Below are positions 4,562 to 60,314 of a stretch of 64,000 nucleotides of DNA, piece by piece. The notes under the pieces are model-generated. The model was not told the DNA's origin, did not search any database, and worked only from the letters and a program-made list of their open reading frames with translations. The position numbers were made by a program, and so were the translations under genes. Positions within the stretch are counted from its first letter, which is position 1. The number at the start of each line of letters is the position of its first letter. Source of the DNA: Eledone cirrhosa (taxonomy: Eukaryota); the NCBI GenBank assembly GCA_964016885.1, contig OZ024743.1, positions 1,612,001-1,676,000 on the forward strand, written 5' to 3'.

Positions 4562-4617
<56 letters not shown>

Positions 4618-5235
4618 GTGAGGTTTTTTTTACAAAATGAAAAATAACCGAGGTGTCCTACACGAGTGAAAGTATAAAGAAAAAGAGATGAAATCGAAAA
4701 TGCAACTGAAGTCTTATTTTTTTTTAAAATATATATATTTATTTGGTTCCTTTACCGGTTTCGCAGTTCTTCTGCTTTTCAAAAGGTGAGTTGAGATGGA
4801 GGGTCTGTGGTTTTTCTCACATCTGGTTGGTCTCTGAATGTTACTTGTTTTATATGGAAAAAGTGGCTCGAAATTCCAGGTTTTTCGAGAAGTAATTTGA
4901 TTGGTTTGTCAATAATTATAATAAATTTCGCGCCAGTTCGCGTTACAATAGTTCTTCAAATAAGAGAGGGGGGTTGTCACAGGTTGTTTTTTCATATATG
5001 AGTGTTTGAATTTCTTTTTACTTGAAAAAAGGAGGCTCACGAAGGCTTTTTTTTGGTTGGTTATAAATGAAATTTGGCTGTCACGTGAACAAGTTTTTAT
5101 TACATTTTTGCGCCCTTATTTGGAAAACTATTCTGTAGTCTTTATAGTGAATGTTATGACAATGGAGAGATAGTGGTCAAGAGAAAATGGATTGGGAGAA
5201 ATGTTCTGGTTCAGTGAATATGGCCAGCTCTTTTT

Positions 5236-6396: not shown

Positions 6397-6887
6397 TATA
6401 CATTATGTCAACACCACAATATGACATACACACACACACATAACACCTTCTACTTTAGAAAATAAAAACCCGAACTAAATAAACCTTAACATACGTTTGC
6501 ACTGGCAATACAACAGCAAACACGAAAAAGTAAGGAAAATATGTTCATTCAAAAATATTCCTACTAAAGGAATCACTTTCCTACACACACACACAATATA
6601 TATATATATATATATTCTCTTCATCTTAACATGCTAACCATACTCCCACACACATAACACCCATACACACACATAACAACCCCCACACCTACAACTCCCT
6701 CCCCATTTCTACTAATAGAACCACTTTCCTACACACATATATATATACACACACACAACATATATATTCTCTCCATCTTAACATACTCGCACACACACAC
6801 ATAACACCCATATACACACACACACAACTCCCTCCCCCATCTCTACTAATAGAATCATCTTCCAATACACACATACACACACACACA

Positions 6888-6946
<59 letters not shown>

Positions 6947-7470
6947 ACACACAAGCACACAAATAAACATACATATCTTCAGTCTCAATAGAAAATCTGA
7001 ACTTTGACACCCCGGCGAGCTAGCCATATTCACTGAACCAGAACATTTCTCTCAATCCATTTTCTCTTGACCACTATCTCTCCGTTGTCATAACATTCAC
7101 TATAAAGACTACAGAATAGTTTTCCAAATAAGGGCGCAAAAATGTAATAAAAACTTGTTCACGTGACAGCCAAATTTCATTTATAACCAACCAAAAAAAA
7201 GCCTTCGTGAGCCTCCTTTTTTCAAGTAAAAAGAAATTCAAACACTCATATATGAAAAAACAACCTGTGACAACCCCCCCCCCTCTCTCTCTTATTTGAA
7301 GAACTATTGTAACGCGAACTGGCGCGCGAAATTTATTATAATTATTGACAAACCAATCAAATTACTTCTCGAAAAACCTGGAATTTCGAGCCACTTTTTC
7401 CATATAAAACAAGTAACATTCAGAGACCAACCAGATGTGAGAAAAACCACAGACCCTCCATCTCAACTCA

Positions 7471-7508
7471 CCTTTTGAAAAGCAGAAGAACTGCGAAACC
7501 GGTAAAGG
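7471..7508 (+). ncRNA. Minimal type I hammerhead in the Penelope pLTR, U3-A8 variant (inverted copy 4749-4786)
   Basis: cctt-TTGAAAA-gcag aagaa ctgc-GAAA-ccgg-TA-aagg. Palindromic helix III ACCGGU. Confidence 0.8.
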
Positions 7509-7577
7509 AACCAAATAAATATATATATTTTTTTTAAAAATAAGACTGCAGTTGCATTTTCGATTTCATCTCTTTTT

Positions 7578-7653
<76 letters not shown>

Positions 7654-8083: not shown

Positions 8084-11000
8084 TTGACGGGACTAGAAGT
8101 AGCAGACAGGACCGAACAGCATGTACCTAGAAAACCGCGGGTTTCTATCAAAGATCATAAATTAGACTTTAAGACTAACCTACCGGGTAGAGTAATAGCA
8201 CCTTCCAAGTCGGACCTAGCTAGGAATATAATAGATAGGATCCTGCCAACGCTTATGAATAGAAATAGACTTAGCTTATGGACTTCCACCAAAGAGGTAA
8301 TCGACTGGTTCACAGCGCTGCCTTCCAAACAGCAAGTGGACTTCGTTCAGCTGGACATAGTAATTGTGAACAAGGCCCTCGTGAGTGCTATGGCCAGGTT
8401 CAACCTAACTAGAGGAGAAGTGGACATCATTATAGCTGCTAGAAAGACTCTAATTAGGTTTGACGGTAGATTATGGAAAAGGAGAGACAGACCCGACAGT
8501 TTCGACATCACTATGGGGTCGAGCGACTCCGCACAGGTGACGGACCTGGTGGGAATTTATCCAACCGCCTATCCACATTGTCCGCCAACACGGATGTGTT
8601 CAATCAGCACGCCGACTACTGCAACGGGGCATTGGTCAGAGCCGGTTACATAGAAGCCATAGTGTACACCCCGGACAAGGGCAAGCCGCATAACGAGGAA
8701 CGCAAACACCCGGAAACCATTAGTACTATCATAGGCAGACAAACCACCCGGGAGCACACACATAAGGATATGGATAGGAGTATTACGCACGGCAAGGAAG
8801 GCACCACGACGCATAGACAGAAGTGGGCGCATGGGAATCCTAGGGACCCCAGCACATGCAGAATGAACCGTAATAACAGCACAAACCACGAAGGGGAAAC
8901 CAAAGATAGTGAAGTAGCTAACGCAGCACAGGACATAGAACACGCTAGAGATAACACCAGGATAAAGAACACCAACAACGATACGGCGGGACACTCGGGT
9001 AGCAGGACGGAGATCAAAACTAGGGCTAGTAAACGTGTACAGAACAGCATAGTAAGTGAATGCCTTTCTCCCGACTTAAATGGTAGTTCTAAGTTAGGGA
9101 TAGAATAGGGGATGAAATAGGAGTCGGGTGTAACCAGAGAAAACAATATGACACTGCACACATTACTAGTAGCAGACGACGAAATAAGAATAGGTCTAGA
9201 AATATAACATGGTTCAATGCACCATACTGGAAGCATGTATGTATGCACTAACGTGCCAGGACTCTTCTTCAGAGCATTAGACGAGTGTTTCCCGGCATCC
9301 CACAGGTACCACAAAATATTCAACCGCCACACCGTGAAGTTCTCATTTTCCACGGCACCCAACATGGCAGAGTACATGGCCAAGGCCAACGCAATGAAAT
9401 TGAGGACACCCCACCGACAAACTTTACAGGCCTCAGGCACGTCGGGAGGGCTGAGTAGAGCGCATGGTGAAGTGGTTAGTGGTTCTGAAGATGTGCCTCG
9501 GTGTGGAGCTGTGGCCGTGGAGGACGCAACACCTGACAACAGAGACCAACAGGTGGTGAACAATGAGTCCACTACTCTGCCGGAACACCACATGAGGACC
9601 GGGGAGAACCCAAATAAGACGTCAGGCCCACATAAAGAGAATGACAAAAATGATGCACGGACATGTAACTACCGTGTAGGAGAGGAGTGCCCTCTGCAGG
9701 GAATGTGCCAGACAAGGCTCGTTGTCTACAGATGTGTGGTTACCACGCACAATGATAGGCACACCTACATGGGGGCAACATCCACGACTTTTCAATCGAG
9801 GATGTACAACCACAAGAACTCGTTCAAGGACAGGAACAAGAGACACTCCACCAGACTGGCGGACCTAATTTGGGATCTCAAAGACAGTGGCACAGAGTTT
9901 GACCTCAGCTGGAGTATTGTCCAGCTCGCAAATGCGTACTCAGCTGGCGAGATGAGGTGCAAGTTGTGCCTATCCGAGGCTATGGAGATAGTAAAACTAA
10001 AGGACGACGCAGTCAACCTCAAATCTGAAGTCATCATGGCCTGCCGACACCAACGTAAATGCACGCTCTCCGCTTTGGTGATACCAGGTGGGTCTATCTA
10101 AGGCACTACCGGTATGACAATGCCAAGTGGGGTGCATGCGGCGGAACACGATATGCCGCAGCATGAATACACGGCTGGACAAGCTGATATCAGCGACAGA
10201 TCCAACGATACCTACCTCGTAACGTACCTTGGATAACACCATCCCACCAACTCGGGGACACCGACTCATTATAAGTCTGATTTTGTCTACAACCTTATGT
10301 GTGGTTTTGAATTTTTTATTTTTAACTTTTAATTTTCGATTCGTGATATTTAATTTGCAACTTTGATGTTGGACTTGATGCGTATCTTAAGATTAGTGTT
10401 GCAGTTAATTCTAACTTTGCCTGCCGTTGCTATCTACACGCCTAAAACACAAGCCGCTGCTATATTCCACTTATGCATCCATTCCACATACATTTCATAT
10501 ATACTGTTATGAAACACATATTCTATACATTCACGATATATTCCATGTATGCATCCATTCCATGTACATTTCATATATACTATTGTGGAAAGGATATTCT
10601 ACACATTCACAATATATATTACTTGTTTGCGTATGCACACACGGTCCCCTGTGTCCACCTGTCTCATGTGCATGGTTGATGTGCACGCTCTTACCCAGTC
10701 CCTTGGATCGTCAGCCCCTCTATATTTTATATAACCCTATGCACCACGGCCCTCAAGTATTTTTATGCAACTTTATGCACATCCCAATAATGTCCGGGTG
10801 ACGTGAACAGACACTCCTCTGCATCTTTGTCATGTATACATTCCTTTTTCCAGTATTTCATTTTATCTTATTTTATTTTATTTTATTTTATTTTATTTTA
10901 TATACATACACGCATTTATATATAGGTGCCACCCATGTTATCTGTGATTAGGGTATGACTACTACGTAGCTATTACATTTATGAATATTGTGCATGCACT

Positions 11001-14025: not shown

Positions 14026-17000
14026 ATAAATTGAAACATAAATGAAAACGAAATTTCATTTCTCACTCTTAGTATGGCACTTACTTAAATGTAAGTATGC
14101 ATGTATACGTACATACATATATGTATACAGACGTACAGTAGCATGCACATATATATATATATATACATATATATATACATATGCATACAGGTACACATAC
14201 ATATATGCACGTATCAGTTTAGCGGCGCTAACGTCGCTTTGTTCGTTTGTAAACAAACTGAACAGCCTGAATTTATGCCATACGGTGTTAAGGCAACCAC
14301 GTCACCTTTTTGTTCAACACTGACACAGGAACGATGTACTAGTTTCAAGCTTGTTAGCTATCATCAGCACCGTTTACCCATCTGCCAGATAGTTGAACGT
14401 TCGAAAGTATATACTTTCCTTATGAAAATTAACGGCTGAGCAGCCTAATTTGCATATTGAGTGAGTTAAATCGGTCAGGCATACCGAAAACGATAAATTG
14501 AAACATAAATGAAAACGAAATTTCATTTCTCACTCTTAGTATGGCACTTACTTAAATGTAAGTATGCATGTATACGTACATACATATATGTATACAGACG
14601 TACAGTAGCATGCACATATATATATATATATACATATATATATACATATGCATACAGGTACACATACATATATGCACGTATCAGTTTAGCGGCGCTAACG
14701 TCGCTTTGTTCGTTTGTAAACAAACTGAACAGCCTGAATTTATGCCATACGGTGTTAAGGCAACCACGTCACCTTTTTGTTCAACACTGACACAGGAACG
14801 ATGTACTAGTTTCAAGCTTGTTAGCTATCATCAGCACCGTTTACCCATCTGCCAGATAGTTGAACGTTCGAAAGTATATACTTTCCTTATGAAAATTAAC
14901 GGCTGAGCAGCCTAATTTGCATATTGAGTGAGTTAAATCGGTCAGGCATACCGAAAACGATAAATTGAAACATAAATGAAAACGAAATTTCATTTCTCAC
15001 TCTTAGTATGGCACTTACTTAAATGTAAGTATGCATGTATACGTACATACATATATGTATACAGACGTACAGTAGCATGCACATATATATATATATATAC
15101 ATATATATATACATATGCATACAGGTACACATACATATATGCACGTATCAGTTTAGCGGCGCTAACGTCGCTTTGTTCGTTTGTAAACAAACTGAACAGC
15201 CTGAATTTATGCCATACGGTGTTAAGGCAACCACGTCACCTTTTTGTTCAACACTGACACAGGAACGATGTACTAGTTTCAAGCTTGTTAGCTATCATCA
15301 GCACCGTTTACCCATCTGCCAGATAGTTGAACGTTCGAAAGTATATACTTTCCTTATGAAAATTAACGGCTGAGCAGCCTAATTTGCATATTGAGTGAGT
15401 TAAATCGGTCAGGCATACCGAAAACGATAAATTGAAACATAAATGAAAACGAAATTTCATTTCTCACTCTTAGTATGGCACTTACTTAAATGTAAGTATG
15501 CATGTATACGTACATACATATATGTATACAGACGTACAGTAGCATGCACATATATATATATATATACATATATATATACATATGCATACAGGTACACATA
15601 CATATATGCACGTATCAGTTTAGCGGCGCTAACGTCGCTTTGTTCGTTTGTAAACAAACTGAACAGCCTGAATTTATGCCATACGGTGTTAAGGCAACCA
15701 CGTCACCTTTTTGTTCAACACTGACACAGGAACGATGTACTAGTTTCAAGCTTGTTAGCTATCATCAGCACCGTTTACCCATCTGCCAGATAGTTGAACG
15801 TTCGAAAGTATATACTTTCCTTATGAAAATTAACGGCTGAGCAGCCTAATTTGCATATTGAGTGAGTTAAATCGGTCAGGCATACCGAAAACGATAAATT
15901 GAAACATAAATGAAAACGAAATTTCATTTCTCACTCTTAGTATGGCACTTACTTAAATGTAAGTATGCATGTATACGTACATACATATATGTATACAGAC
16001 GTACAGTAGCATGCACATATATATATATATATACATATATATATACATATGCATACAGGTACACATACATATATGCACGTATCAGTTTAGCGGCGCTAAC
16101 GTCGCTTTGTTCGTTTGTAAACAAACTGAACAGCCTGAATTTATGCCATACGGTGTTAAGGCAACCACGTCACCTTTTTGTTCAACACTGACACAGGAAC
16201 GATGTACTAGTTTCAAGCTTGTTAGCTATCATCAGCACCGTTTACCCATCTGCCAGATAGTTGAACGTTCGAAAGTATATACTTTCCTTATGAAAATTAA
16301 CGGCTGAGCAGCCTAATTTGCATATTGAGTGAGTTAAATCGGTCAGGCATACCGAAAACGATAAATTGAAACATAAATGAAAACGAAATTTCATTTCTCA
16401 CTCTTAGTATGGCACTTACTTAAATGTAAGTATGCATGTATACGTACATACATATATGTATACAGACGTACAGTAGCATGCACATATATATATATATATA
16501 CATATATATATACATATGCATACAGGTACACATACATATATGCACGTATCAGTTTAGCGGCGCTAACGTCGCTTTGTTCGTTTGTAAACAAACTGAACAG
16601 CCTGAATTTATGCCATACGGTGTTAAGGCAACCACGTCACCTTTTTGTTCAACACTGACACAGGAACGATGTACTAGTTTCAAGCTTGTTAGCTATCATC
16701 AGCACCGTTTACCCATCTGCCAGATAGTTGAACGTTCGAAAGTATATACTTTCCTTATGAAAATTAACGGCTGAGCAGCCTAATTTGCATATTGAGTGAG
16801 TTAAATCGGTCAGGCATACCGAAAACGATAAATTGAAACATAAATGAAAACGAAATTTCATTTCTCACTCTTAGTATGGCACTTACTTAAATGTAAGTAT
16901 GCATGTATACGTACATACATATATGTATACAGACGTACAGTAGCATGCACATATATATATATATACATATATATATACATATGCATACAGGTACACATAC

Positions 17001-17204
17001 ATATATGCACGTATCAGTTTAGCGGCGCTAACGTCGCTTTGTTCGTTTGTAAACAAACTGAACAGCCTGAATTTATGCCATACGGTGTTAAGGCAACCAC
17101 GTCACCTTTTTGTTCAACACTGACACATATATATATATATATATATGTGCATGCTACTGTACGTCTGTATACATATATGTATGTACGTATACATGCATAC
17201 TTAC
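14026..17204 (-). mobile_element. Retrozyme-like tandem array A: 467-bp unit, ~6.6 near-identical copies plus short inverted tail
   Basis: Units start at 14026, 14493, 14960, 15427, 15894, 16361 and 16828 (ORF track repeats every 467 bp); array ends 17127; ~17128-17204 is an inverted piece of the unit; in (TA)n. Confidence 0.92.
14330..14374 (-). ncRNA. Minimal type I hammerhead ribozyme, array A (copies also at 14797, 15264, 15731, 16198, 16665; 45 nt each)
   Basis: aacggtg-CTGATGA-t agct aaca agct t-GAAA-ctag-TA-catcgtt. Helix I 7 bp, palindromic helix III ACUAGU, GUA site. Confidence 0.9.
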
Positions 17205-17209
17205 ATATA

Positions 17210-18022: not shown

Positions 18023-18643
<621 letters not shown>

Positions 18644-21336
18644 AGACGGTAATATGTGTCACATATCGGCCGCCCGATGCCCCCAGTCATGAGGGTAAAT
18701 TTGAGGATAGCCTAAGTAGGATAGAAGAGGTCCTTGACAAACTGGACCAGGGTCTCAACATCCTACTGCTGGGAGACTTCAACCTACCAAAGGTCAAATG
18801 GCCTGAGAGCCACCTCCTCCCTGGAATGACGTCAATAGAACAGAGACAGACGGAATCCCTGCTGGCCCTCACACACAGGCTGTTCATTGAGCAAGCAATA
18901 CTCCTCCCAACAAGAGGCGAAAATGTCCTGGACCTCTGTTTACAAACAACGAAGTGCTCATCCACAATGTAAAGGTGACACCAACAATTCTCTCGGATCA
19001 TAACTTGGTAGAGCTAATGATATGTGGTCCAAGAGAACCAACAGAGACAAAACCACCAAGAAGCTCCGGGACGCTATCCAGCCTTAACTTCTACGGGGCT
19101 GACTGGAAGAAGATTAAGAGTGAAATCCGGAAGCAAACGTGGAGTGCAAACATCGCCACACAAGACACTAACACACAATTTCAACACTTCATGACAACGA
19201 TACACACCATATGCAAAAAGTGTGTCCCGGAGAAAGAGGCAAACAGACACAAAAATCTTATTCCCAGAGATAGGAAAATCCTTATGAGACGTAGAACTAA
19301 ACTCTCAAACCAATTGAATAGTCAACAAAACCAAAACAAGAAGGAATCCTATTTGAAACGTGCACTACTTGACACCGAGATTGCACTCAAGCTTTCACAT
19401 GAGAATGAGAGGGCAAGGAAAGAGAACAGGGCCATAGAAAACATTAAAACAAACCCTAAGGCCTTCTTTAAATTTGCAAAAGAAACTGCCTCAGTACACT
19501 GCAAGATTGGACCACTCTTCCACACGGACGGTTCATTAACCGAAAATCCCCAAGAGATATGTGAAATACTGAACGAACAGTACAAAAGTGTCTTCACATG
19601 TCCACTGAGGCACATGCAAATAACGAAGCCAGAGGAGTTCTTTGATGCCACAACACTACATCAAGAAATGGCAACCATCAACCACATAGACATAACGGAG
19701 GAGGATGTGGTGTACGCCATTGATGAAATTAGAACAGACTCGGCTGCTGGACCTGATGGATTCCCAGCAGTTCTCCTAAAAATATGTAAGCGGGCCTTAG
19801 CAACTCCACTGAAGATGCTCTTCAGAAGCTCCTTGGCTAGCGGTGTACTACCCAGGGAGCTGAAAGAAGGCACAATATGCCCTATCCATAAAGGAGGTAG
19901 TAGAGCGGAGGCCAAGAACTATAGGCCAGTCTCCCTGACGTCGCATATCAGTAAGGTCATGGAGCGAGTCGTCAGAAAGAAACTAATCACTTTCCTCGAA
20001 GAAAATGACCGCCTGACTAGCACGCAACATGGCTTCCGCCCAGGAAGAAGCTGCCTTACACAGCTGATACATCACTACGACTGGGTACTGAGACAGCTAC
20101 TAGACAGCTCACATGTAGACGTGATATATCTTGACTTTGCGAAGGCCTTTGACAAGGTCGACCACGGAATGATATGTCACAAACTACACGGACTCGGCAA
20201 GTCGCAGCAAATGGGGCCCTCTCGAGGGAAACACCGATAACAAGTGGGGTGCCTCAGGGGACAGTCCTGGGACCACTACTGTTTTTGGTGGCTCTCTCGG
20301 ACATGCCCTCTGTGGTGCATGCAACAACATCCCTCACTAGCTATGCTGATGACACTAAGGTAGCACAGGCAATCAAAAACCCGGCTGACGCTGCCCTCTT
20401 ACAGCAGGATCTGGATGCCATATACAGATGGGCGGAAGAAAACAACATGCAGTTTAATGCTGGCAAATTCCAAGCCCTATAATACAAACCTGCAAACACA
20501 AACACAAATATAGCGGAACACAGCTACACAGGACCAGGAGGGACCGATATCTCCGTGTCAAAATCGATACGAGACCTGGGCATAGACATGAGCGATGATG
20601 CATCTTTTTCTTCACACATCATGAAGGTGGCGACAGCATGTAGACGATTCGCTGGCTGGATCTTGAGGACTTTCCTTACAAGAGATCGAGACACCATGTT
20701 GACACTGTGGAGGACTTTTGTCCTAAGCCGCCTGGACTACTGCTCCCAGCTGTGGTCACCCCATAGTGTCAAACTAACCACAGAGCTTGAGGCAATCCAG
20801 CGAAGCTACACCAAGAGGATTGCCAAGATGAGGGAGACAAGCTATTGGGAGAGGCTGAAGGAACTGACACCTCTACTCCTTGGAGCGAAGACGGGGAGAG
20901 ATACGCAGTGATCTACATGTGGAAAATCCTGGAGGGACTAGCACCAAACTTTGGCATTGGGAGCTGGACCAACCGTCGAACAGGACGTCACTGTGTGGTG
21001 CCAAAGGTCCCGTCTTCCACATCTAGAATAAGGAGCAGGTATTGCAATAGCCTGGGATTCAAGGGCCCTCAACTCTTCAACAGGCTGCCGAGGCATCTGC
21101 GAGACTTGCATGACGTGGAGGTGGATGTCTTTAAGAAACATCTCGACACCTTGTTATCCAGGATCCCGGATGAGCCCACAGCAAGACACGAGGGAAACCT
21201 AAGGGCAGCAGCAACAAACTCCCTCCTACACCAGTGGCCAACCTATACAGGCTGGAGATAAAATGTGTAGCAACAAGGGCGGTGCCCCAGCATGGCCTCA
21301 GCCGGATGGCTGAAACAGGTAAAAGAGTAAAAGAGA
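18644..21336 (+). mobile_element. CR1-group LINE, 5'-truncated ORF2 (APE + RT) pseudogene with 3' stem-loop, in (TA)n
   Basis: [23 protein letters not shown] (APE); [43 protein letters not shown] (RT). Frameshifts near 18945, 20197 (deletion) and 20870; stop at 20480; tail ggtaaaagagtaaaagag. A 3'-end copy is also at 45724-45772. Confidence 0.92.
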
Positions 21337-27482
<6,146 letters not shown>

Positions 27483-27779
27483 ATAAAAACAAATAACGAA
27501 ACGAAATTAAATTTCGTTTCGTTTGTAACTCACTTTTGTATGACTGACGCTTAAACAATTAAGTTAAAGATGTACATCCATATATGTATACTGAAATACT
27601 AGTATGTATATGAATACACACACGTATACATATGTAGATGTACCAAGTTTTTTCACTGGTCACTTTTACTGTGAGTGGCCAGCTATTCTGTATGTAAACA
27701 CACAGACAAACCGGTTTTTAGAGTCATACTGGTTTTTGAGGAAACACCTTTCCTCTATTCTCCAGAAAGCCAGACAAGG

Positions 27780-27824
27780 AATATTGAACTAGTTTCGTTG
27801 TTGTTACAACTCATCAGCAATATT
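27780..27824 (-). ncRNA. Minimal type I hammerhead, array B left arm (copies at 28246, 28712, 29179, 29646, 30113, 30580, 31047, 31514, 31981)
   Basis: aatattg-CTGATGA-gttg taacaa caac-GAAA-ctag-TT-caatatt. Palindromic helix III AACUAGUU, GUU site. Confidence 0.9.
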
Positions 27825-30800
27825 TACTATCTTCCGGCCTCTCTAGAGAATCGTAAAAGCACATATCGTTATTGCTTATTTCTATGAAAATTAGTAGTGG
27901 GCAGACTAATTTGCATAGAGTGTGAGTAAGTACCGGTTCAACGGAGACGATAAAAACAAATAACGAAACGAAATTAAATTTCGTTTCGTTTGTAACTCAC
28001 TTTTGTATGACTGACGCTTAAACAATTAAGTTAAAGATGTACATCCATATATGTATACTGAAATACTAGTATGTATATGAATACACACACGTATACATAT
28101 GTAGATGTACCAAGTTTTTTCACTGGTCACTTTACTGTGAGTGGCCAGCTATTCTGTATGTAAACACACAGACAAACCGGTTTTTAGAGTCATACTGGTT
28201 TTTGAGGAAACACCTTTCCTCTATTCTCCAGAAAGCCAGACAAGGAATATTGAACTAGTTTCGTTGTTGTTACAACTCATCAGCAATATTTACCTATCTT
28301 CCGGCCTCTCTAGAGAATCGTAAAAGCACATATCGTTATATGCTTTTTCTATGAAAATTAGTAGTGGGCAGACCAATTTGCATAGAGTGTGAGTAAGTAC
28401 CGGTTCAACGGAGACGATAAAACAAATAACGAAACGAAATTAAATTTCGTTTCGTTTGTAACTCACTTTTGTATGACTGACGCTTAAACAATTAAGTTAA
28501 AGATGTACATCCATATATGTATACTGAAATACTAGTATGTATATGAATACACACACGTATACATATGTAGATGTACCAAGTTTTTTCACTGGTCACTTTA
28601 CTGTGAGTGGCCAGCTATTCTGTATGTAAACACACAGACAAACCGGTTTTTAGAGTCATACTGGTTTTTGAGGAAACACCTTTCCTCTATTCTCCAGAAA
28701 GCCAGACAAGGAATATTGAACTAGTTTCGTTGTTGTTACAACTCATCAGCAATATTTACCTATCTTCCGGCCTCTCTAGAGAATCGTAAAAGCACATATC
28801 GTTATATGCTTTTTCTATGAAAATTAGTAGTGGGCAGACTAATTTGCATAGAGTGTGAGTAAGTACCGGTTCAACGGAGACGATAAAAACAAATAACGAA
28901 ACGAAATTAAATTTCGTTTCGTTTGTAACTCACTTTTGTATGACTGACGCTTAAACAATTAAGTTAAAGATGTACATCCATATATGTATACTGAAATACT
29001 AGTATGTATATGAATACACACACGTATACATATGTAGATGTACCAAGTTTTTTCACTGGTCACTTTACTGTGAGTGGCCAGCTATTCTGTATGTAAACAC
29101 ACAGACAAACCGGTTTTTAGAGTCATACTGGTTTTTGAGGAAACACCTTTCCTCTATTCTCCAGAAAGCCAGACAAGGAATATTGAACTAGTTTCGTTGT
29201 TGTTACAACTCATCAGCAATATTTACCTATCTTCCGGCCTCTCTAGAGAATCGTAAAAGCACATATCGTTATATGCTTTTTCTATGAAAATTAGTAGTGG
29301 GCAGACCAATTTGCATAGAGTGTGAGTAAGTACCGGTTCAACGGAGACGATAAAAACAAATAACGAAACGAAATTAAATTTCGTTTCGTTTGTAACTCAC
29401 TTTTGTATGACTGACGCTTAAACAATTAAGTTAAAGATGTACATCCATATATGTATACTGAAATACTAGTATGTATATGAATACACACACGTATACATAT
29501 GTAGATGTACCAAGTTTTTTCACTGGTCACTTTACTGTGAGTGGCCAGCTATTCTGTATGTAAACACACAGACAAACCGGTTTTTAGAGTCATACTGGTT
29601 TTTGAGGAAACACCTTTCCTCTATTCTCCAGAAAGCCAGACAAGGAATATTGAACTAGTTTCGTTGTTGTTACAACTCATCAGCAATATTTACCTATCTT
29701 CCGGCCTCTCTAGAGAATCGTAAAAGCACATATCGTTATATGCTTTTTCTATGAAAATTAGTAGTGGGCAGACTAATTTGCATAGAGTGTGAGTAAGTAC
29801 CGGTTCAACGGAGACGATAAAAACAAATAACGAAACGAAATTAAATTTCGTTTCGTTTGTAACTTACTTTTGTATGACTGACGCTTAAACAATTAAGTTA
29901 AAGATGTACATCCATATATGTATACTGAAATACTAGTATGTATATGAATACACACACGTATACATATGTAGATGTACCAAGTTTTTTCACTGGTCACTTT
30001 ACTGTGAGTGGCCAGCTATTCTGTATGTAAACACACAGACAAACCGGTTTTTAGAGTCATACTGGTTTTTGAGGAAACACCTTTCCTCTATTCTCCAGAA
30101 AGCCAGACAAGGAATATTGAACTAGTTTCGTTGTTGTTACAACTCATCAGCAATATTTACCTATCTTCCGGCCTCTCTAGAGAATCGTAAAAGCACATAT
30201 CGTTATATGCTTTTTCTATGAAAATTAGTAGTGGGCAGACCAATTTGCATAGAGTGTGAGTAAGTACCGGTTCAACGGAGACGATAAAAACAAATAACGA
30301 AACGAAATTAAATTTCGTTTCGTTTGTAACTCACTTTTGTATGACTGACGCTTAAACAATTAAGTTAAAGATGTACATCCATATATGTATACTGAAATAC
30401 TAGTATGTATATGAATACACACACGTATACATATGTAGATGTACCAAGTTTTTTCACTGGTCACTTTACTGTGAGTGGCCAGCTATTCTGTATGTAAACA
30501 CACAGACAAACCGGTTTTTAGAGTCATACTGGTTTTTGAGGAAACACCTTTCCTCTATTCTCCAGAAAGCCAGACAAGGAATATTGAACTAGTTTCGTTG
30601 TTGTTACAACTCATCAGCAATATTTACCTATCTTCCGGCCTCTCTAGAGAATCGTAAAAGCACATATCGTTATATGCTTTTTCTATGAAAATTAGTAGTG
30701 GGCAGACCAATTTGCATAGAGTGTGAGTAAGTACCGGTTCAACGGAGACGATAAAAACAAATAACGAAACGAAATTAAATTTCGTTTCGTTTGTAACTCA

Positions 30801-32448
30801 CTTTTGTATGACTGACGCTTAAACAATTAAGTTAAAGATGTACATCCATATATGTATACTGAAATACTAGTATGTATATGAATACACACACGTATACATA
30901 TGTAGATGTACCAAGTTTTTTCACTGGTCACTTTACTGTGAGTGGCCAGCTATTCTGTATGTAAACACACAGACAAACCGGTTTTTAGAGTCATACTGGT
31001 TTTTGAGGAAACACCTTTCCTCTATTCTCCAGAAAGCCAGACAAGGAATATTGAACTAGTTTCGTTGTTGTTACAACTCATCAGCAATATTTACCTATCT
31101 TCCGGCCTCTCTAGAGAATCGTAAAAGCACATATCGTTATATGCTTTTTCTATGAAAATTAGTAGTGGGCAGACTAATTTGCATAGAGTGTGAGTAAGTA
31201 CCGGTTCAACGGAGACGATAAAAACAAATAACGAAACGAAATTAAATTTCGTTTCGTTTGTAACTCACTTTTGTATGACTGACGCTTAAACAATTAAGTT
31301 AAAGATGTACATCCATATATGTATACTGAAATACTAGTATGTATATGAATACACACACGTATACATATGTAGATGTACCAAGTTTTTTCACTGGTCACTT
31401 TACTGTGAGTGGCCAGCTATTCTGTATGTAAACACACAGACAAACCGGTTTTTAGAGTCATACTGGTTTTTGAGGAAACACCTTTCCTCTATTCTCCAGA
31501 AAGCCAGACAAGGAATATTGAACTAGTTTCGTTGTTGTTACAACTCATCAGCAATATTTACCTATCTTCCGGCCTCTCTAGAGAATCGTAAAAGCACATA
31601 TCGTTATATGCTTTTTCTATGAAAATTAGTAGTGGGCAGACCAATTTGCATAGAGTGTGAGTAAGTACCGGTTCAACGGAGACGATAAAAACAAATAACG
31701 AAACGAAATTAAATTTCGTTTCGTTTGTAACTCACTTTTGTATGACTGACGCTTAAACAATTAAGTTAAAGATGTACATCCATATATGTATACTGAAATA
31801 CTAGTATGTATATGAATACACACACGTATACATATGTAGATGTACCAAGTTTTTTCACTGGTCACTTTACTGTGAGTGGCCAGCTATTCTGTATGTAAAC
31901 ACACAGACAAACCGGTTTTTAGAGTCATACTGGTTTTTGAGGAAACACCTTTCCTCTATTCTCCAGAAAGCCAGACAAGGAATATTGAACTAGTTTCGTT
32001 GTTGTTACAACTCATCAGCAATATTTACCTATCTTCCGGCCTCTCTAGAGAATCGTAAAAGCACATATCGTTATATGCTTTTTCTATGAAAATTAGTAGT
32101 GGGCAGACTAATTTGCATAGAGTGTGAGTAAGTACCGGTTCAACGGAGACGATAAAAACAAATAACGAAACGAAATTAAATTTCGTTTCGTTTGTAACTC
32201 ACTTTTGTATGACTGACGCTTAAACAATTAAGTTAATTTAACTTAATTGTTTAAGCGTCAGTCATACAAAAGTGAGTTACAAACGAAACGAAATTTAATT
32301 TCGTTTCGTTATTTGTTTTTATCGTCTCCGTTGAACCGGTACTTACTCACACTCTATGCAAATTGGTCTGCCCACTACTAATTTTCATAGAAAAAGCATA
32401 TAACGATATGTGCTTTTACGATTCTCTAGAGAGGCCGGAAGATAGGTA

Positions 32449-32493
32449 AATATTGCTGATGAGTTGTAACAACAACGAAACTAGTTCAATATT
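32449..32493 (+). ncRNA. Minimal type I hammerhead, array B right arm (copies at 32916, 33383)
   Basis: Same motif read directly on the + strand: aatattgctgatgagttgtaacaacaacgaaactagttcaatatt. Confidence 0.9.
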
Positions 32494-33643
32494 CCTTGTC
32501 TGGCTTTCTGGAGAATAGAGGAAAGGTGTTTCCTCAAAAACCAGTATGACTCTAAAAACCGGTTTGTCTGTGTGTTTACATACAGAATAGCTGGCCACTC
32601 ACAGTAAAGTGACCAGTGAAAAAACTTGGTACATCTACATATGTATACGTGTGTGTATTCATATACATACTAGTATTTCAGTATACATATATGGATGTAC
32701 ATCTTTAACTTAATTGTTTAAGCGTCAGTCATACAAAAGTGAGTTACAAACGAAACGAAATTTAATTTCGTTTCGTTATTTGTTTTTATCGTCTCCGTTG
32801 AACCGGTACTTACTCACACTCTATGCAAATTAGTCTGCCCACTACTAATTTTCATAGAAAAAGCATATAACGATATGTGCTTTTACGATTCTCTAGAGAG
32901 GCCGGAAGATAGGTAAATATTGCTGATGAGTTGTAACAACAACGAAACTAGTTCAATATTCCTTGTCTGGCTTTCTGGAGAATAGAGGAAAGGTGTTTCC
33001 TCAAAAACCAGTATGACTCTAAAAACCGGTTTGTCTGTGTGTTTACATACAGAATAGCTGGCCACTCACAGTAAAGTGACCAGTGAAAAAACTTGGTACA
33101 TCTACATATGTATACGTGTGTGTATTCATATACATACTAGTATTTCAGTATACATATATGGATGTACATCTTTAACTTAATTGTTTAAGCGTCAGTCATA
33201 CAAAAGTGAGTTACAAACGAAACGAAATTTAATTTCGTTTCGTTATTTGTTTTTATCGTCTCCGTTGAACCGGTACTTACTCACACTCTATGCAAATTGG
33301 TCTGCCCACTACTAATTTTCATAGAAAAAGCATATAACGATATGTGCTTTTACGATTCTCTAGAGAGGCCGGAAGATAGGTAAATATTGCTGATGAGTTG
33401 TAACAACAACGAAACTAGTTCAATATTCCTTGTCTGGCTTTCTGGAGAATAGAGGAAAGGTGTTTCCTCAAAAACCAGTATGACTCTAAAAACCGGTTTG
33501 TCTGTGTGTTTACATACAGAATAGCTGGCCACTCACAGTAAAGTGACCAGTGAAAAAACTTGGTACATCTACATATGTATACGTGTGTGTATTCATATAC
33601 ATACTAGTATTTCAGTATACATATATGGATGTACATCTTTAAC

Positions 33644-33676
<33 letters not shown>

Positions 33677-33688
33677 CATATACATATA

Positions 33689-35969
33689 TGACGCTATGGA
33701 TTTCCACAATGCAAACTGGGAAGCGATCAGTCATGATCTTGCACATGTCGACTGGTCCTTCACGCACACTCATACACCCACTAACATCAAAAAGTCCTGG
33801 CAGACATTTGTGGACACTGTTACAAACATATGTGCTAAACACACCCCATTAAGAACTATAAACAAATCTAAGAGCAGAATCCCTAGAAATAGAAAAACGC
33901 TCATCAGAAAAATTAAGAGAACGAACAAAAAAATCAACAATCTGAAATACTGTCAGCAGCAACACATCAACTTGACTGCCATTTCATCACTAGAGATTAA
34001 AAAACATAACCTCCAAAACAACATAATGTCCCTCATCAACAATCAGAGAAGAGCTGAAGAGGCCTGGGCCATTGAGAAGATCAAACTCAATCCCAAAGTG
34101 TTCTTTTCATTTGCAAAAAAACACAAAATCACTGGCTCTACTGTTGGCCCTCTAATTGATGAAAATGGCACTCTTCAAGACAATGCTAAAACCATGGGTG
34201 AGATACTGCAGAAACAATACTGCTCTGTTTTCAGCAATCCTGATATGGCCGATCTGGGCTGTATCGGCGATGTTACTCCCCATTACACCTTATCGGACAT
34301 AACGTTTGGCACCCCTGATGTCTTGGCGGCAATAAAGGAAATCAAGCATAACTCAGCAGTAGGTCCCGATAGGTTCCCTGCTTGTGTCTTGAAGGCGTGT
34401 CAACACCAACTTGCTTCTCCTCTTGCCAATCTGTGGCGGAACTCACTGGATGCTGGATATGTGCCAGAAAACCTTCTATCCCAGTCTGTTGTCCCAGTTT
34501 TCAAAAAGGGAAACAAATCCCTTGCCGTGAATTACCGTCCAATCTCACTCACCTCTCATATCATTAAGGTATTTGAGCGAGTGGTGAGATCGCGAATGAC
34601 CCACTTCCTTGAGAGTAACAATATGCTGAACTCCAACCAGCATGGATTCCGTAATGGAAGGGATTGCCTGACGCAACTACTGCATCACTTTGATGACATT
34701 TTGAGAGCCTTGGGAGAGGGTTCCAACACTGATGTTATCTACCTTGATTTCAGCAAGGCCTTTGACAGGGTTGATCATAACATTCTACTGAGAAAGCTGT
34801 CCAATATTGGTGTCACTGGAAAGCTGCTGCAGTGGATCAAGAGCTTCCTGTCAAACAGAACCCAACATGTTGTAGTTGAGGGAGTCAAATCAAGCCCAGC
34901 CAAAGTCAGTAGTGGAGTCCCACAAGGCACTGTGTTGGGCCCACTTCTCTTCATCATCTATATTAATGACATCACTGACATCATCAAACACAGCAACATT
35001 AAAATTTTCGCTGATGATTCCAAGCTCCAAAAGGTCATCAATGGCGTGGATGACCGGATAAGCCTTCAGTCAGACCTACTGGCTGTTACCCAATGGGCAG
35101 AAAAGAACAACATGTTACTGAACGAAGACAAATTCGAACTGATCCACTTTGGAAAAGAGGATGCTCTGAAACTCCCGTACTCCCTTCCCTCCGGGGAAAC
35201 TCTCGTGGCATCTAACAACATCAGAGACTTGGGAGTAACCGTGGACAGCAACATAAGCTGGACCACGCATATAAGCAGCAAAGTTGACATGGCCCGCAGA
35301 ATGTGTTCCTGGATCCTCAGAACCTTCCAGTCGAGAGATTCCCGCACCATTATCCTTCTCTTCTCTACTTTCGCCCGACCACACCTTGAATACTGTTGTC
35401 CACTGTGGTCTCCCCACACGAAACAAAGTATCATGAAACTTGAAGCTCCTCAAAGGGCAATCACGAAAAAGATAGATGGCATGTCAGACCTTGACTACTG
35501 GGGTCGATTGGAAAACCTGAAACTTTACTCACTCCAACGTCGCCGTGAGCGTTATATTATCTGCATGATGTGGAAAATGTTCCATCATCACTGCCCAAAT
35601 GATGTTGGCATCGCCTTCAAGATACACCCAAGGCTTGGGCCCCGTGCTATCCGTCCCATTCAAAAATCTAAATCGCAACTCATAACAACAATACGGCACA
35701 ATTATTTCACCTCAATCGGCCCTGCTCTCTTCAACATCACACCAGGACACGTCAAAACAGAAACTGACCACACAAAATTCAAGAAGTCTTTGGACAAATT
35801 CCTCCAAGTAATCCCGGACAAACCACCCACACCCGGATATGTCTCCGCAAACAGTAATTCTCTTCTCGAATGGGCCATGGTGCCCAAATCCTGAATTGAA
35901 AGACTTCGCCAGGTGGTGCTATTAAGTTAGACATGGCCTGGGCCAATACTGGCCAAAACATTTCAAAGT

Positions 35970-35970
<1 letters not shown>
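33689..35970 (+). mobile_element. CR1-group LINE, 5'-truncated, uninterrupted RT frame, in (TA)n
   Basis: Open frame to 35894; 3' UTR hairpin tggcc...ggcca; (TA)n on both sides. Confidence 0.92.
33696..35894 (+). CDS. LINE ORF2 reverse transcriptase (partial, no APE domain)
   Basis: [68 protein letters not shown]. The N-terminal ~50 aa of the tracked ORF come from repeat sequence. Confidence 0.88.
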
Positions 35971-39920: not shown

Positions 39921-42900
39921 CTACAGGCTGAGGTAGAGAGAAGGCCCATTCACACGGGCCATTCTCGCAACTTTCACCCACCTTTCATAAAACTGGCTGG
40001 AGTGGAGCACCTCTCTCTCCATCCTGATCCTTCTTCCGAAATGGTATCGGAAAAAAAGGACCAGTTGTTGGCCGGAGAGAAAGGTGTCCGACCTCAGCCC
40101 TTTCAGACGCGTCCACCATATAGCCTCTTTTACCATGGCTATTACACAGAGGAAGACCGCCTCTCCTTCATTTTTGAAGTGGGGAGGCGGCTTGATCGTT
40201 ACAATGGACTCGGTGGTCAACCTAATTGGTCCCACCCGTGACAGCAGTTGTTCGACATAGCCCCACAGATCGGCAACGCCCGGGCAGTGCACCAATGCGT
40301 GCGCGACGGTTTCCTCGTCGCGCACGCATCTGGGACAGATCTTTTTCGAGGGGTCCCTACCCGGGCGCCCGTGTCTGTAGAGCTTATCCCGAACGGGCAG
40401 AGCCCCTCGGTAGCACTGCCAGGCCAAGGACTTCTGGAAGTTGTCCATAGGTCCCGGGCCGAAAGTCCTACCGAATAGACTGGCCAGTTCGTCCTCCTCC
40501 ATGCCTAGGGCTTCTCCGAGGGCGTCGTCGCACCCGTTAACCACCAGCCCTCTATAGAATGACGAGGTGGAGTCTCCGTCGATAGCCGGGTCCGCCTGCC
40601 AGAGAGCCGTGAGCGCCTGGGCACACTCGGTGTGCCAGTCGCCCAGTTTTCTCGGTCTTTGCTTCACCCAGGACTGCAGCTCGGTGAGCGAGACGAGCCT
40701 CGGGAAGGCTCGCCTCACAAACGGGGCCCACACCGGTTGACCGGTGAGGAATACGTGGAGGTGCCTTAGCCTCAATGCGTGTTTACGCATTTTTAGCCAC
40801 GGCATCCCCAGCCCTCCTTTCAAAGGGTGTTGACAGCAGATGGATCTCCTCACTAGAGGAGACCTCTTCTTCCAAAGGAAATAAAAGAGGGCGCGCTCCA
40901 TTTTGGCGAGGATCTCACCCGGGCAAGGCACGACAGTCAAGCGGTAATAGATGACGGACGCTATGTAAGCGTTCGCCACCTCCGCCCGACCTTTTAGGGA
41001 TAGTTTGCACTCGGCCCACTTCTGGGTCAGTGCAAACACCCTATTCGTCACCTCACCCCAGTTTTTCTCCACCTGGAGGTCCGGTCCGAACCAGACCCCA
41101 AGCAACTTCACCGGGCCCTCCGTCCACCGTCCGACGATACCGTCGCACGACATCGCTTTGCCCCTCCACTCGCCGAGTTGCAAAGCGACTGACTTGTCCC
41201 GGTTCAGCTTAGCCCCTGTCAACCTTTCGTACTCCTCTAGTAAGGTGCCGATCGCCTCGATTTCCGAGGCGGTCGACACCATTACTGTTACGTCATCGGC
41301 GTAGGCCGACACCGCTTTGCGCAATCCCGGTTCCAAAGGGATGCCCTGCAACAACTCCAACTTCCGCAGTAATGGCTCGAGAGTCAATACATACAGAAGG
41401 GAGGAGAGAGGGCACCCCTGTCGGATGGAGCGGGTGATTTCGAACGGCTCCGAAAGGTAGCCGTTCACCTTGACTCTAGAGCAGATGCGGCTGCTGTGCA
41501 TGGCAGTGATCCAGCCCCTGAAAACGGGTCCGAACCCAGCCGCCGCTAGCACCGCATCCAGGTAACCATGGTCCACCCTATCGAACGCTTTAGACTGATC
41601 TAAATTTATCAGGGCCCCACCAAAGCCGGGTTCGTTCCCAACCCTCTCTATGATGTATCGCATGAGGTGGAGGTTGTCGTGGATGGACCTGGACGGGATA
41701 GCGCATGTCTGCGCATCTCCCACCAGGCCCCCCACGACAAGCGCCAACCTCTTCGCTAACACCTTCGCCAAAATTTTTAACTCTGCATTTAGCAGAGTTA
41801 TGGGCCTAAAATTACTAATGTCATCCCCCTTGTTCTCGTACTTCCTCACTAGCGAGACTACGCCCTTGGTCACAGAACAGGGAATTCTCCCGTTCTGTTG
41901 CCAGTTGCAGTAGACCGCCTCGAGGAGATCGGGGAACAAGTCCGGCATATTAATATATAGTTCGTAGGGCAGACCATCGAGTCCTGGAGATTTGCGTTTG
42001 CCGCATAGGCTCAGCACGTCCCCTATTTCAGCAGCTGAGATCGGCCCGTCGCAGGACCTCGCCTCCCTGTCCGAAAGACGCGGCAGACCGTCGAGGTATG
42101 GACCGAAATCCACATCTCCAACCGGCTCCCCGCCCCTCCCGAACAATTGGGCAAAGTGCCTTTGAAAGGCCTCGCACATTTGCTTAGGTTCAAGGATCAG
42201 CCGTCCATCCTGGTCTCGCAAAGACCGGATAGTGGATTTAATCCCACTTTTCGCTTCTGTCACGCGGGCCCAGCTAACAGCTTTGGTCCCCTCGTTTCCC
42301 AGAGCACGTATTTTGCTTCGGACAACGCAGCCTTCGTGTTTCGCGTCGAAGAACTGGTTCAAGACCGTTCTCGACGCTTGCACTCTGGCCACGTTGCCGC
42401 TTCTCATTGCCTCTTCAACATTAACTACCAACTCCCTTTCCTTCCTATTTCTATCTGAGGCTAACTCCTTACTAACTCCTATTGAAACTACTCTAATCTC
42501 TCTTTTTAGAGAGCCCCACCACCTGTTGTTGACGATGGCGCCCGTCAACTGCTCCTTAACTAAGGTTCTAATCCGGTCCCTGTAAGCTCTACTTGCCGGT
42601 AAGGACAAGTTGAGCTTCCAGTAACCGGGCCCCTGCCTATGCATTCTATCAAGGTGGACTACGCAGGTCACTAACTTGTGGTCTGAATAGCCCACCATGA
42701 GCATTTCTGGACAACTTAAAAAGTCCCTATCCTTAATTCTAACTAAGAACCTATCTAGGTACGATCTAGATTGACCACTGTTATTTGACCAGGTCCAGGT
42801 TGGTACAGTCGGAAAATCTAGTCGGTATCTATCGGCCAGGTCGAATCGGCCGATTAACCCCTTAAGGCTGTTACACCCCCCTCTATCGGGACATGCCCCT

Positions 42901-43362
42901 ACATAGTCCCAACGTGCATCTAGGATACCATTCCAGTCCCCCACTAAAAGCAAGGAGCGGGACGTCCCTAGAAAAGTCTCCAGACGATGGAAGAAGTCCG
43001 ACCGCATTGCCCCAAAAGGGGCGTATACGGCGACAAGCCTAAAAGCTTCGCCTTCGCCATTGCCAAGGTCCAGAACCACGAGTCGACCCTCCGGGTCCAA
43101 GTGTACCGTCTGTGTAGCGAGACCCAGATGTTTTTGCAGCAGAACGACAACCCCACCCCCACCTCCAGGCTGACAGAGAGATGCGTGCATCTCAAAGTCA
43201 TCAAAGGTGGGGGTTAGCTGTCGCATGCTGCTGATCCGGGCCTCCCTCGCAAATAACCATCACATTTACACATTGTGACCTGAGGTCACTTAGAAGTTTA
43301 GCTTGCTTCCAAGGTGAGCCCAGGCCACGCGCATTTAGACATCCTACTCTTAAGACAGCCAT
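39921..43362 (-). CDS. ORF2: APE endonuclease + RT + C-terminal CCHC zinc motif; one frameshift near 43245
   Basis: Likely start MAVLRVGCLNARGL at 43362; VGDWN, SYLDRFLV, SDHKLV; [45 protein letters not shown]; CPRC...HALVHC. Confidence 0.92.
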
Positions 43363-43385
43363 GTTGGTGGCAAAGAAAGAGGCAC

Positions 43386-45146
43386 TTACCTCTCTGCGTC
43401 CCGGGGTTCGGGTCGCTCAGTTTCCATGGGGCTGGTGGAGGGGTTGATGGGTGGGGTGGTGGTTTGTGGTGGTGTGGGGGTATTAGTGTGTGGAGGGGTT
43501 GGGATCTTTGGAGTTGTGTGGGTGTTTGAGGAGGGGAGGGGAAAACCTTTCAGGAGGACGCGGTTGAGTGGCCTGGTGCAGGGTGGGCCCACGTCCTCAG
43601 GGTACATGTCTTTTAAAGTTTTGAAAATGTCAAGTGGGATTTTCACCATTTTCAGGTTAGGGAGCCCCATTGCCGTTACGAAATTCGGCCCTTCGGTTTG
43701 TATCGAAGGGTTGGTTTCTATTTTTAAAGTTAGGTTTTCATTGTTTTTGTTTATGTAGAGTTTTTGTGTTGTTGTGTTTGTTTTTGCTTGTTGTTGTTGA
43801 GTGAGTTTGCGTTTTATTGTCTGTGTTGTGTTGTCAGGTGGGGTTATTTTTGTTGTTGTGGTGTGTGTACGTTTTTTTCTTTTCACTTTTTGGAAGGGAG
43901 CCCCCTCGTCTTCCGACGATATGAGCTCCTCTTCCGTATTGGAGGGGAGGGGTATATCTCCGGGTTGTGTATGAACTGTTTTTGTATTTGTGTTCTGTGG
44001 GGTGGGGCTGGGTGGGACCGTGTTTTGGGTTGTTTTCTTGAGCTGTTGTTGATGTTGTTGTTGTTGTTGTTGTTGTTGTGGTGGTGGTGGTGGTGTTGTT
44101 GGTTTTTGTTGTTCTGGTGGTGATGGTAGTGTATTTTGTTGTTTTTGTGATGGTGGTGCTGGTTGTTTTTGTTGTTGTTGTGGTGTTTGTAGCAGTGGTT
44201 TTTTAGTTGTTAGTAGAGGGCAGGCCGTCCTCAGGTGACCTCTGCCAGCGCAGTGGTAACATGAGGGTCTCCTGCCTTCCACTGTGATATTTATGTAGGT
44301 TCGCCCATCCAGTAGCACTCGGTCGGGTATTCCGGAGATTCTCTCAGGTGTCATCTGTAAGAGAACCTCCAGACTTTTCCCCCCGAACAGTCCACTGGTG
44401 GACTCCCCTGCTGAAATTAGTATGTCCTTATCTAGGTCGGTAAATCCTGTTAGGACGGACCAGATGTTAATTTCTGGCGTAGGGCTCCACATTCTTATCC
44501 TTTGTGTTCTTCTTCCTTTATATGTGGGGAAGAAGGTGTATTGTGGTGACACTATAGGTGCCACCGAATATTTCTGAGCCAGCATTTCGTCCTTCATTCG
44601 GACCATAATGCTGGCATACAGCTTTCCTCTTTGAATAAAGAGTATGTCATTTTTAATTTCTTTCAGAACCAGCTCGATTTGACTTTCGGTCAATTGCGCT
44701 GGCTTTCTCGTTTCGTTGGTTATGGTTCTGTAGCTTACGGTATTCTTGTAAATCTGTTCACGCACTTCTTCTGGGGAGTTGATCGTAAAAGAACCATCCT
44801 CCCCAAAAGATACGTATTTTCTAGCCTCTAGCAAATTTTCCTTGGCGTTCGTGATGTCAATGGCTTTGTATTCCGTGGCTCTCCTGAGTGTTTGGGCAAA
44901 AGAAATTTTGTCTTTGTTTGTTGTTGTAATGTTGTTGGTTTCCTTATTTGTGGTGTTATTTTTCTCTTGAAAATTAATTTTTTCATTTGAATTGAAATTC
45001 TTTTTTTCATTGGAGAGGAGGGGTTGTTCAACAGTTTGAACTGTTGTTCCCTCTTTCCCGCTTGTTTTTTTGGTCGGCGTGGCGTTCGCTTCCAATATGG
45101 CGATATCGTTTTCGACGATATCGTTATCAACGATATCGATAAACAT
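43386..45146 (-). CDS. ORF1 gag-like nucleic-acid-binding protein with CCHC zinc knuckle
   Basis: 586 aa; CYHCAGRGHLRTAC; Q/P/T-rich tail; directly upstream of ORF2. Confidence 0.85.
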   Translation of the reverse strand: MFIDIVDNDIVENDIAILEANATPTKKTSGKEGTTVQTVEQPLLSNEKKNFNSNEKINFQEKNNTTNKETNNITTTNKDKISFAQTLRRATEYKAIDITNAKENLLEARKYVSFGEDGSFTINSPEEVREQIYKNTVSYRTITNETRKPAQLTESQIELVLKEIKNDILFIQRGKLYASIMVRMKDEMLAQKYSVAPIVSPQYTFFPTYKGRRTQRIRMWSPTPEINIWSVLTGFTDLDKDILISAGESTSGLFGGKSLEVLLQMTPERISGIPDRVLLDGRTYINITVEGRRPSCYHCAGRGHLRTACPLLTTKKPLLQTPQQQQKQPAPPSQKQQNTLPSPPEQQKPTTPPPPPQQQQQQQQHQQQLKKTTQNTVPPSPTPQNTNTKTVHTQPGDIPLPSNTEEELISSEDEGAPFQKVKRKKRTHTTTTKITPPDNTTQTIKRKLTQQQQAKTNTTTQKLYINKNNENLTLKIETNPSIQTEGPNFVTAMGLPNLKMVKIPLDIFKTLKDMYPEDVGPPCTRPLNRVLLKGFPLPSSNTHTTPKIPTPPHTNTPTPPQTTTPPINPSTSPMETERPEPRDAER

Positions 45147-45390
45147 TTCTGAAATATTTATTTTTCACCCCAAAAGGGGTGAAAATATATTTACTCGACG
45201 TCTAGAGTCCCAGACTAGGGGTTAGCGTTAATTATACAAAAGAATTCAAAAAATTCCACTCACAAAAATAGCAGGTAAAAATCCAAATCACAGAGCGATA
45301 TGACACACGTCTACTATCCTCAGACAGACAGACAGACAGACAGACAAGCAGACAGACAAGCAGACAAGCAGACAGACAAGCAGACAAGCA

Positions 45391-60079: not shown

Positions 60080-60314
60080 GGTGTGTTTTCACTGTTCTCT
60101 TAAGTCGACACTGACTAACAGACTGGTGAGGGCTAGAGGTGTGTTTTTACTGCTCAGCTAAGACGACACTGACAAACTGACTGATGAGGGCCAGAAGTGT
60201 GTTTTCACTGCTCAGCTAAGATGACACTAACTAACTGACTGATGAGGGCCAGAAGTGTGTTTTCACTGCTCAGCTAAGGTGAAAGTCAGAGGTGTGTTTT
60301 CACTGCTCAGCTAA
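60080..60314. repeat. 58-bp minisatellite, ~3.6 copies
   Basis: gtgtgttttcactgctcagctaag...ctgatgagggccagaa recurs at ~60081, 60139, 60197 and 60255. Confidence 0.8.

Follow-up and report, generated by a model that had tools for sequence, protein, structure and literature searches.

A retrozyme array with two inverted arms in Eledone cirrhosa: insertion footprint, unit variation and links to Penelope-like elements

The window analysed here, a stretch of 64,000 nucleotides from Eledone cirrhosa (assembly GCA_964016885.1, contig OZ024743.1, positions 1,612,001 to 1,676,000 of the forward strand), contains at 27483-33643 an array of 13 hammerhead ribozyme units in two arms of opposite orientation. 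Judged by its sequence, the array is a retrozyme without long terminal repeats (a non-LTR retrozyme), a known class of element, with a predicted self-cutting motif. Tandem Repeats Finder (TRF) resolved 27483-32236 as 10.2 copies with a period of 467 and 32237-33643 as 3.0 copies in the reverse orientation; BLAST segmentation of the two arms gave 10.18 and 3.0 units, confirming the 10.2 and 3.0 oppositely oriented units of the original prediction. The features of the locus are the following (window positions).

27483..32236, minus strand: arm 1, 10.18 tandem 467-nt units with RNA sense on the minus strand (TRF, BLAST segmentation); it meets (TA)n on the outside at unit position 1 (priming site 1) and ends on the inside at unit position 85
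32237..33643, plus strand: arm 2, 3.01 units (1,407 nt) with RNA sense on the plus strand (TRF, BLAST segmentation); outer end at unit position 78-81 (site 2 of the family is mostly at 70-76); inner end at unit position 86
30831..33643: near-perfect inverted repeat of 2,813 bp, whose sides flanking 32237 measure 1,406 bp each; its 3 mismatches are confined to the polymorphism of unit position 425
32152..32236, minus strand: region with both priming sites, unit positions 1-85; unit positions 1-70 are the 'tail', present only on the outer end of arm 1
32449..32493, plus strand: example of the minimal type I hammerhead, made up of stem I, CUGAUGA, stem II, GAAA and a palindromic stem III; cleavage is predicted 3' of 32486 (GUU); one such motif stands in each unit, giving 13
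32109..32109: unit position 425 in unit 10; the RNA reads A or G here, within UAG and a predicted stem
21337..27482: left-hand (TA)n target
33644..33689: right-hand (TA)n target

The 13 hammerhead cores are identical; the minus strand has ten of them (27817...32018) and the plus strand has the other three (32456, 32923 and 33390). The RNA 3' ends of the two arms thus face outward, into (TA)n, and the core positions and strands bear out both the number of ribozymes and the outward 3' ends claimed earlier. The motif was identified by core sequence and folding, and the modelled fold is as predicted; its core is nearly invariant across ~430 sampled units and intact in 13/13 units of the array. An Rfam scan of the window at gathering thresholds returned no match. 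The monomer folds far beyond shuffled sequences (z-score -9.5), the GC content of the array is ~0.35, and no stop-to-stop frame of 150 aa lies inside it. Lacking an open reading frame (ORF) and an encoded reverse transcriptase (RT)/GIY-YIG protein, the array is a passenger and not a Penelope-like element (PLE).

The near-perfect 2.8-kb inverted repeat described earlier was recovered, with 1,406 bp on each side and three mismatches. Its centre is at 32237, as originally placed, but not as a 1-nt spacer: the T at this position is the templated first base of arm 2, so that the centre is a blunt join of unit positions 85|86. This exact junction occurs once in the genome, and none of the contigs of four public runs spans it, a result that is uninformative either way. 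No target-site duplication is discernible at the array, whose flanks are both (TA)n. The two arms do not begin in the same unit. When arm 2 is reversed, it carries on from arm 1 in phase, overlapping it by 5 nt, which reads as if arm 1 had ended at the priming point of arm 2.

Two-armed insertions across the family

The genome contains 1,908 exact junctions between (TA)n and unit position 1, corresponding to ~1,900 insertions at many dispersed loci; a looser hammerhead pattern, which includes sister families, has 23,109 matches. Architecture was sampled on the largest contig, from the first 81 of its listed junctions (80 stretches, of which 79 were analysed); three insertions ran off the end of their stretch, leaving 76 assessable. 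A script classed these as 54 two-armed insertions, 12 with short inverted stubs and 10 single. Four were corrected by hand: the stubs of L086 and L092 are TA noise, and L104 and L076 were counted with an inverted piece. After these corrections, an inverted second arm or stub is present in 66/76 insertions. Complete second arms end at unit positions 70-76 in 45/50 cases, and 14 of 19 further junctions are two-armed. The free (site-2) end lies in (TA)n in nearly all sampled insertions, site 1 having been selected for (TA)n. The inverted arm is therefore the normal footprint of the family, with the second arm primed ~70 nt from the first. Rows for L088 (a duplicate of L087) and L209 (a mis-set region) were dropped, as were unit positions 160-173 and, next to gaps in the alignment, 5 nt. 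The insertions L087 and L088, which lie on one contig 17.7 kb from each other, are identical in structure, by local duplication or as an assembly repeat.

Symmetric centres are no commoner in the family than expected by chance. Inner ends fall within 15 nt of symmetry at 5/54 loci (3.9 when shuffled) and within 2 nt at 2/54 (0.7 when shuffled, P 0.15). The palindrome is thus an ordinary two-armed insertion in which the two truncations coincide, and the exact symmetry of its centre is likely due to chance. Arm-1 inner ends fall at unit positions 70-101 in 11/45 arms longer than one unit (3.8 expected) and arm-2 inner ends in 3/31 (2.7 expected); because the interval was picked after inspection, the clustering is a hint only. 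No pile-up of complementary DNA (cDNA) ends was found at the cleavage site, two seeming cases being alignment ends at a subfamily mismatch.

These data bear on the original suggestion that the palindrome arose by cDNA fold-back (snap-back), which is improbable and finds no support here. Such an origin would suit a centre symmetric to within 1 nt, and arm 2 equals arm 1 offset by one unit with 0 differences, which a displaced-strand switch could yield. However, arm 2 mismatches the adjacent arm 1 at 3/3 polymorphic mirror positions, a displaced-strand switch on a dimer circle would be in phase rather than out of phase, the family shows no excess of symmetric centres, and arm 2 terminates at the second priming site of the family.

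It is very improbable that the structure is an assembly artefact, either a chimeric fold-back read or, for the alternating base at position 425, polishing noise. Unit 1 carries several small errors, which show that the assembly is not flawless, and the lack of a public contig across the junction also leaves room for an artefact. Against this, the arms end in different flanks and are not mirror copies, whereas from a fold-back read one would expect a mirror image of the neighbouring DNA and flank, and most loci have the same architecture. Position 425 does not vary within other young arrays; polishing thus does not generally scramble it.

Links to Penelope-like elements

PLE copies in this genome show the same pairing of a long end with a short end (7/7 and 3/3 loci with both ends visible), and start sites are spaced ~38 and ~63 nt apart in two PLE families here and ~70 nt apart in the retrozyme. 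Among the 79 insertions, two are chimeras with a single PLE family, copies of which have 784-codon open frames. L076 combines a site-1 arm of the retrozyme with a PLE RT/GIY-YIG arm that bears the short end; at L101 ~230 nt of the 3' end of that family (long form) runs into three retrozyme units. The family architecture and the two chimeras support the original proposal of a Penelope-type integration with two priming events. An inverted 5'-truncated copy, a one-sided tail and a (TA)n bias are features of PLEs in the available part of PMC8557442. In vitro, a purified PLE extended both target strands from two internal start sites bracketing the tail (PMC11167929, available part), and the minimal hammerhead of PLEs is described with a palindromic stem III (PMC6765202, available part).

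A similarity between the retrozyme tail and PLE tails, apparent by eye, was dropped as not significant.

Two PLEs or remnants lie in the window itself. At 4612-7580 is a 5'-truncated PLE with an RT end, a GIY-YIG domain, a CxxxxCxxC linker and one in-frame stop; it carries its own 3' end again as an inverted copy, together with a degenerate hammerhead and a tail of ~63 nt, and its family includes copies with 775-codon open frames. The linker, from which the clade was assigned, places it with the Neptune/Nematis type as a putative member. A second PLE-like remnant (8084-10101) has tblastn matches at many fetched loci and no Pfam family.

Short interspersed nuclear element (SINE)-like mobilisation by the neighbouring long interspersed nuclear element (LINE) at 33690-35960 would fit the position of that element, whose RT frame is 46 nt away and which likewise ends in (TA)n. 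It is nevertheless a most improbable origin: on inspection the two elements have no common 3' end, the two fixed start sites and inverted arms match PLE copies, and the chimeras that were found are with a PLE.

The surrounding region is a nest of TA-associated retroelements. Two 5'-truncated LINEs (18643-21336 and 33690-35970) are each followed by kilobases of (TA)n. Array A (14026-17205) consists of 6.6 units of a related 467-nt hammerhead family (303/499 aligned columns identical); it lies in (TA)n and begins at the homologous site 1, and its inverted stub of 78 nt terminates close to unit position 64. Frames of 592 and 1,112 aa at 39921-45164 (minus strand) resemble, on inspection, an intact two-ORF LINE, and a 58-bp tandem repeat at 60081-60278 contains CTGATGA, a partial hammerhead-like core.

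Unit variation and the RNA template

Units are near-uniform inside an insertion and insertions differ from one another (58 haplotypes in 76 loci). Segments crossing the predicted cleavage site at least twice number 52/137, and only 16 of 2,579 neighbouring unit pairs genome-wide differ at position 425. Array length is unrelated to age (rho 0.005, n=64), and arrays of 13.5 units (L074) and 21.6 units (L032+33) have zero single-unit substitutions. These signs of repeated copying of one unit and the fixed A>G variants described below lend the circular template of the original prediction support that is indirect. A route from circular RNA to tandem cDNA with a PLE partner has been proposed for metazoan retrozymes, and minor dimer circles of an axolotl retrozyme form in vitro (PMC7229834, available text). 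The unit was also found in public runs of 16 organisms, for which relatives, contamination or transfer are all possible; among the runs listed as carrying it there is no RNA run, and one run (X4) has, at low depth, a single 497-nt contig (467+30, as a closed monomer would assemble).

Rare variants fixed over several rounds of the unit are strongly asymmetric in RNA sense, with 28 A>G and 6 U>C (18 and 3 when required in both arms). Measured against the local consensus, fixed variants comprise 46 A>G at 21 loci and 8 U>C at 5; without the most edited locus, 25 A>G and 8 U>C distinct sites remain (P 0.003). A held-out set of 24 usable haplotypes from 39 stretches gave 15 A>G and 4 U>C (P 0.011). 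In contrast, single-unit changes, which were taken as marks of post-insertion mutation, are symmetric (27 A>G and 30 U>C; held-out, 11 and 7). The A>G changes are also clustered: 13/22 lie at most 10 nt from another, compared with 1.6 expected, when L096 is left out. L096 (306-1679) itself has 12 changes, 11 of them A>G lying in ~120 nt, repeated in two or three rounds of arm 2, and L074 has three A>G within 6 nt in 12 + 1 units, that is, in both arms. The fixed, clustered changes suggest ADAR-type editing of a circular monomer followed by repeated copying. A-to-I editing, which the original prediction had named as a check, was looked at here in DNA copies and gave the strongest new result. 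Among titles and abstract openings in the literature, inverted retrozymes included and with most subscription papers outside this scope, no report of a fixed-edit signature was found.

The A>G bias could instead reflect a transcription-associated mutation asymmetry in the DNA of source copies, or an RT error bias fixed over generations. An A>G asymmetry in transcribed DNA is known in other animals, and the ADAR neighbour preference is not significant here, both of which count for such an origin. It is nonetheless unlikely, because the ratio is ~4-6 to 1 and the clusters in single templates (L096, L074) are not given by point mutation.

Position 425 is the sole segregating site of the array. 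In arm 1 the order of its states is T C T C T C C T C T, in arm 2 C T C; neighbours switch in 10/11 comparisons (P 0.006 if random), and 10 of the 16 mixed neighbour pairs of the genome sit in this array. Other mixed loci have one switch each (L200, L201, L202 and L052) or one odd unit (L050). Arrays that are pure C and pure T and otherwise identical to this unit are both present. A dimer circle of one A unit and one G or inosine unit would give a period of two at this position; such a circle is the most likely template here, at about an even chance, and the C,C slip would require one later unit loss or template jump. On a monomer circle, random reading of a modified base in each round is disfavoured by the 10/11 switches (P 0.006) and by edits elsewhere, which are fixed in all rounds.

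Some observations would suit a different template, in which the same two-ended PLE priming acts on linear uncleaved multimers and later tandem duplication and gene conversion lengthen the arrays and fix variants. PAc accepts uncleaved RNA in vitro (PMC11167929, available part). L037 has a variant in the fourth unit of both arms, which suits a linear multimer or a larger circle, and three older long arrays (L063, L102 and L128) show variant patterns of period 4-6, typical of later duplication and suggesting later satellite-like growth. Linear multimers, larger circles or later duplication thus also contribute. As the general explanation, however, this template is doubtful: edits on a linear multimer should be unit-specific, whereas single-unit changes lack the A>G excess and fixed ones have it, and satellite growth agrees poorly with array lengths independent of age and with the 13.5- and 21.6-unit arrays lacking single-unit substitutions.

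A model for the array and its meaning

The best explanation, which we consider probable, is that the array is a young retrozyme insertion into a TA microsatellite, made by a PLE RT/GIY-YIG protein that primed from both cut ends and re-copied a circular RNA. Arrays would be transcribed, and the RNA would self-cleave and ligate into 467-nt circles, sometimes dimers, part of which may be marked by ADAR-type A-to-I editing. The footprint shows one target strand primed at unit position 1 and the other ~70 nt upstream on the RNA, with a PLE protein as the candidate enzyme. The two primed strands give two arms with RNA 3' ends outward. Each RT would pass the ligation site again and again, so that every unit of both arms would carry an edit as G. 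The joining of the truncated cDNA ends is visible in the DNA, at positions that are unrelated across the family and here coincide at 85|86. Whether heritable change in the family comes mainly from host ADAR, with each array a DNA record of one RNA circle, here a heterodimeric or half-edited dimer, is about equally balanced. Long double-stranded RNA (dsRNA) from read-through transcription is geometrically possible.

Several points weigh against this account. The alternation at position 425 has one phase slip (C,C at units 6-7), a single-nucleotide basis and one assembly behind it, and the errors in unit 1 concern that same assembly. Both chimeras belong to older subfamilies (88% and 94% identity with this unit) rather than to the youngest, and the 3' region of the retrozyme has no significant similarity to the pseudo-LTRs (pLTRs) of two PLE families (P 0.15-0.76). 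The in-phase variant of L037 suits a linear multimer or a larger circle. ADAR prefers a 5' U, not G, and a 3' G; at the 28 sites, neighbour preference and stem location showed trends in the expected direction, none of them significant. Fixed edits could stem from an earlier generation or from fast post-insertion duplication, and expression, cleavage, circles, inosine and dsRNA are all inferred from DNA copies.

In its short, low-GC tandem repeats with one type I hammerhead per unit, no protein and many loci, the family resembles the metazoan non-LTR retrozymes described in the available text of PMC7229834; its unit of 467 nt is slightly longer than the range of 150-450 stated there. The word 'inverted' is absent from the main text of that paper, whereas inverted arms are present here; its available text names RNA editing just as a possible cause of heterogeneity in circular RNA, whereas here edits appear fixed in genomic copies. 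With Neptune/Nematis PLEs, as characterised in the available parts of PMC8557442 and PMC11167929, the family shares the inverted 5'-truncated copy, (TA)n targeting and two internal RT starts, and it appears to have the one-sided tail as well; the minimal hammerhead with its palindromic stem III is a further common feature (PMC6765202). Unlike those PLEs, the retrozyme lacks an ORF, has a tail of ~70 rather than 30-40 nt, and has multi-unit concatemers in both arms. Vertebrate retrozymes are likewise tied to PLEs in the available part of bioRxiv 10.64898/2026.07.22.740005, which draws the link from pLTR phylogeny together with co-occurrence and inclines to local amplification of the satellite type; the link made here comes from the footprints of insertions and from chimeras, and the data speak for array formation at the time of insertion. 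The class and the PLE-type footprint are thus known, and what is added is a replicated editing signature and an alternating array.

Hepatitis delta-type circular RNAs combine a ribozyme, a structured circle and ADAR editing that is heritable on copying, as proposed here. They replicate from RNA to RNA, whereas the retrozyme copy would be reverse-transcribed into a host chromosome.

The movement of animal retrozymes is debated, between copying of a circle by PLEs (PMC7229834) and satellite-type growth (bioRxiv 10.64898/2026.07.22.740005), as far as the available parts of these sources go. Fixed and clustered as they are, the A>G changes serve as barcodes of individual molecules, and they favour repeated copying of one RNA unit and one template for both arms. 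With its defined substrate of 467 nt, its two start sites mapped and a candidate enzyme that has open frames, the family suits in vitro study. The A>G signature points to RNA editing written back into the germline genome as the leading mutational force on a mobile element.

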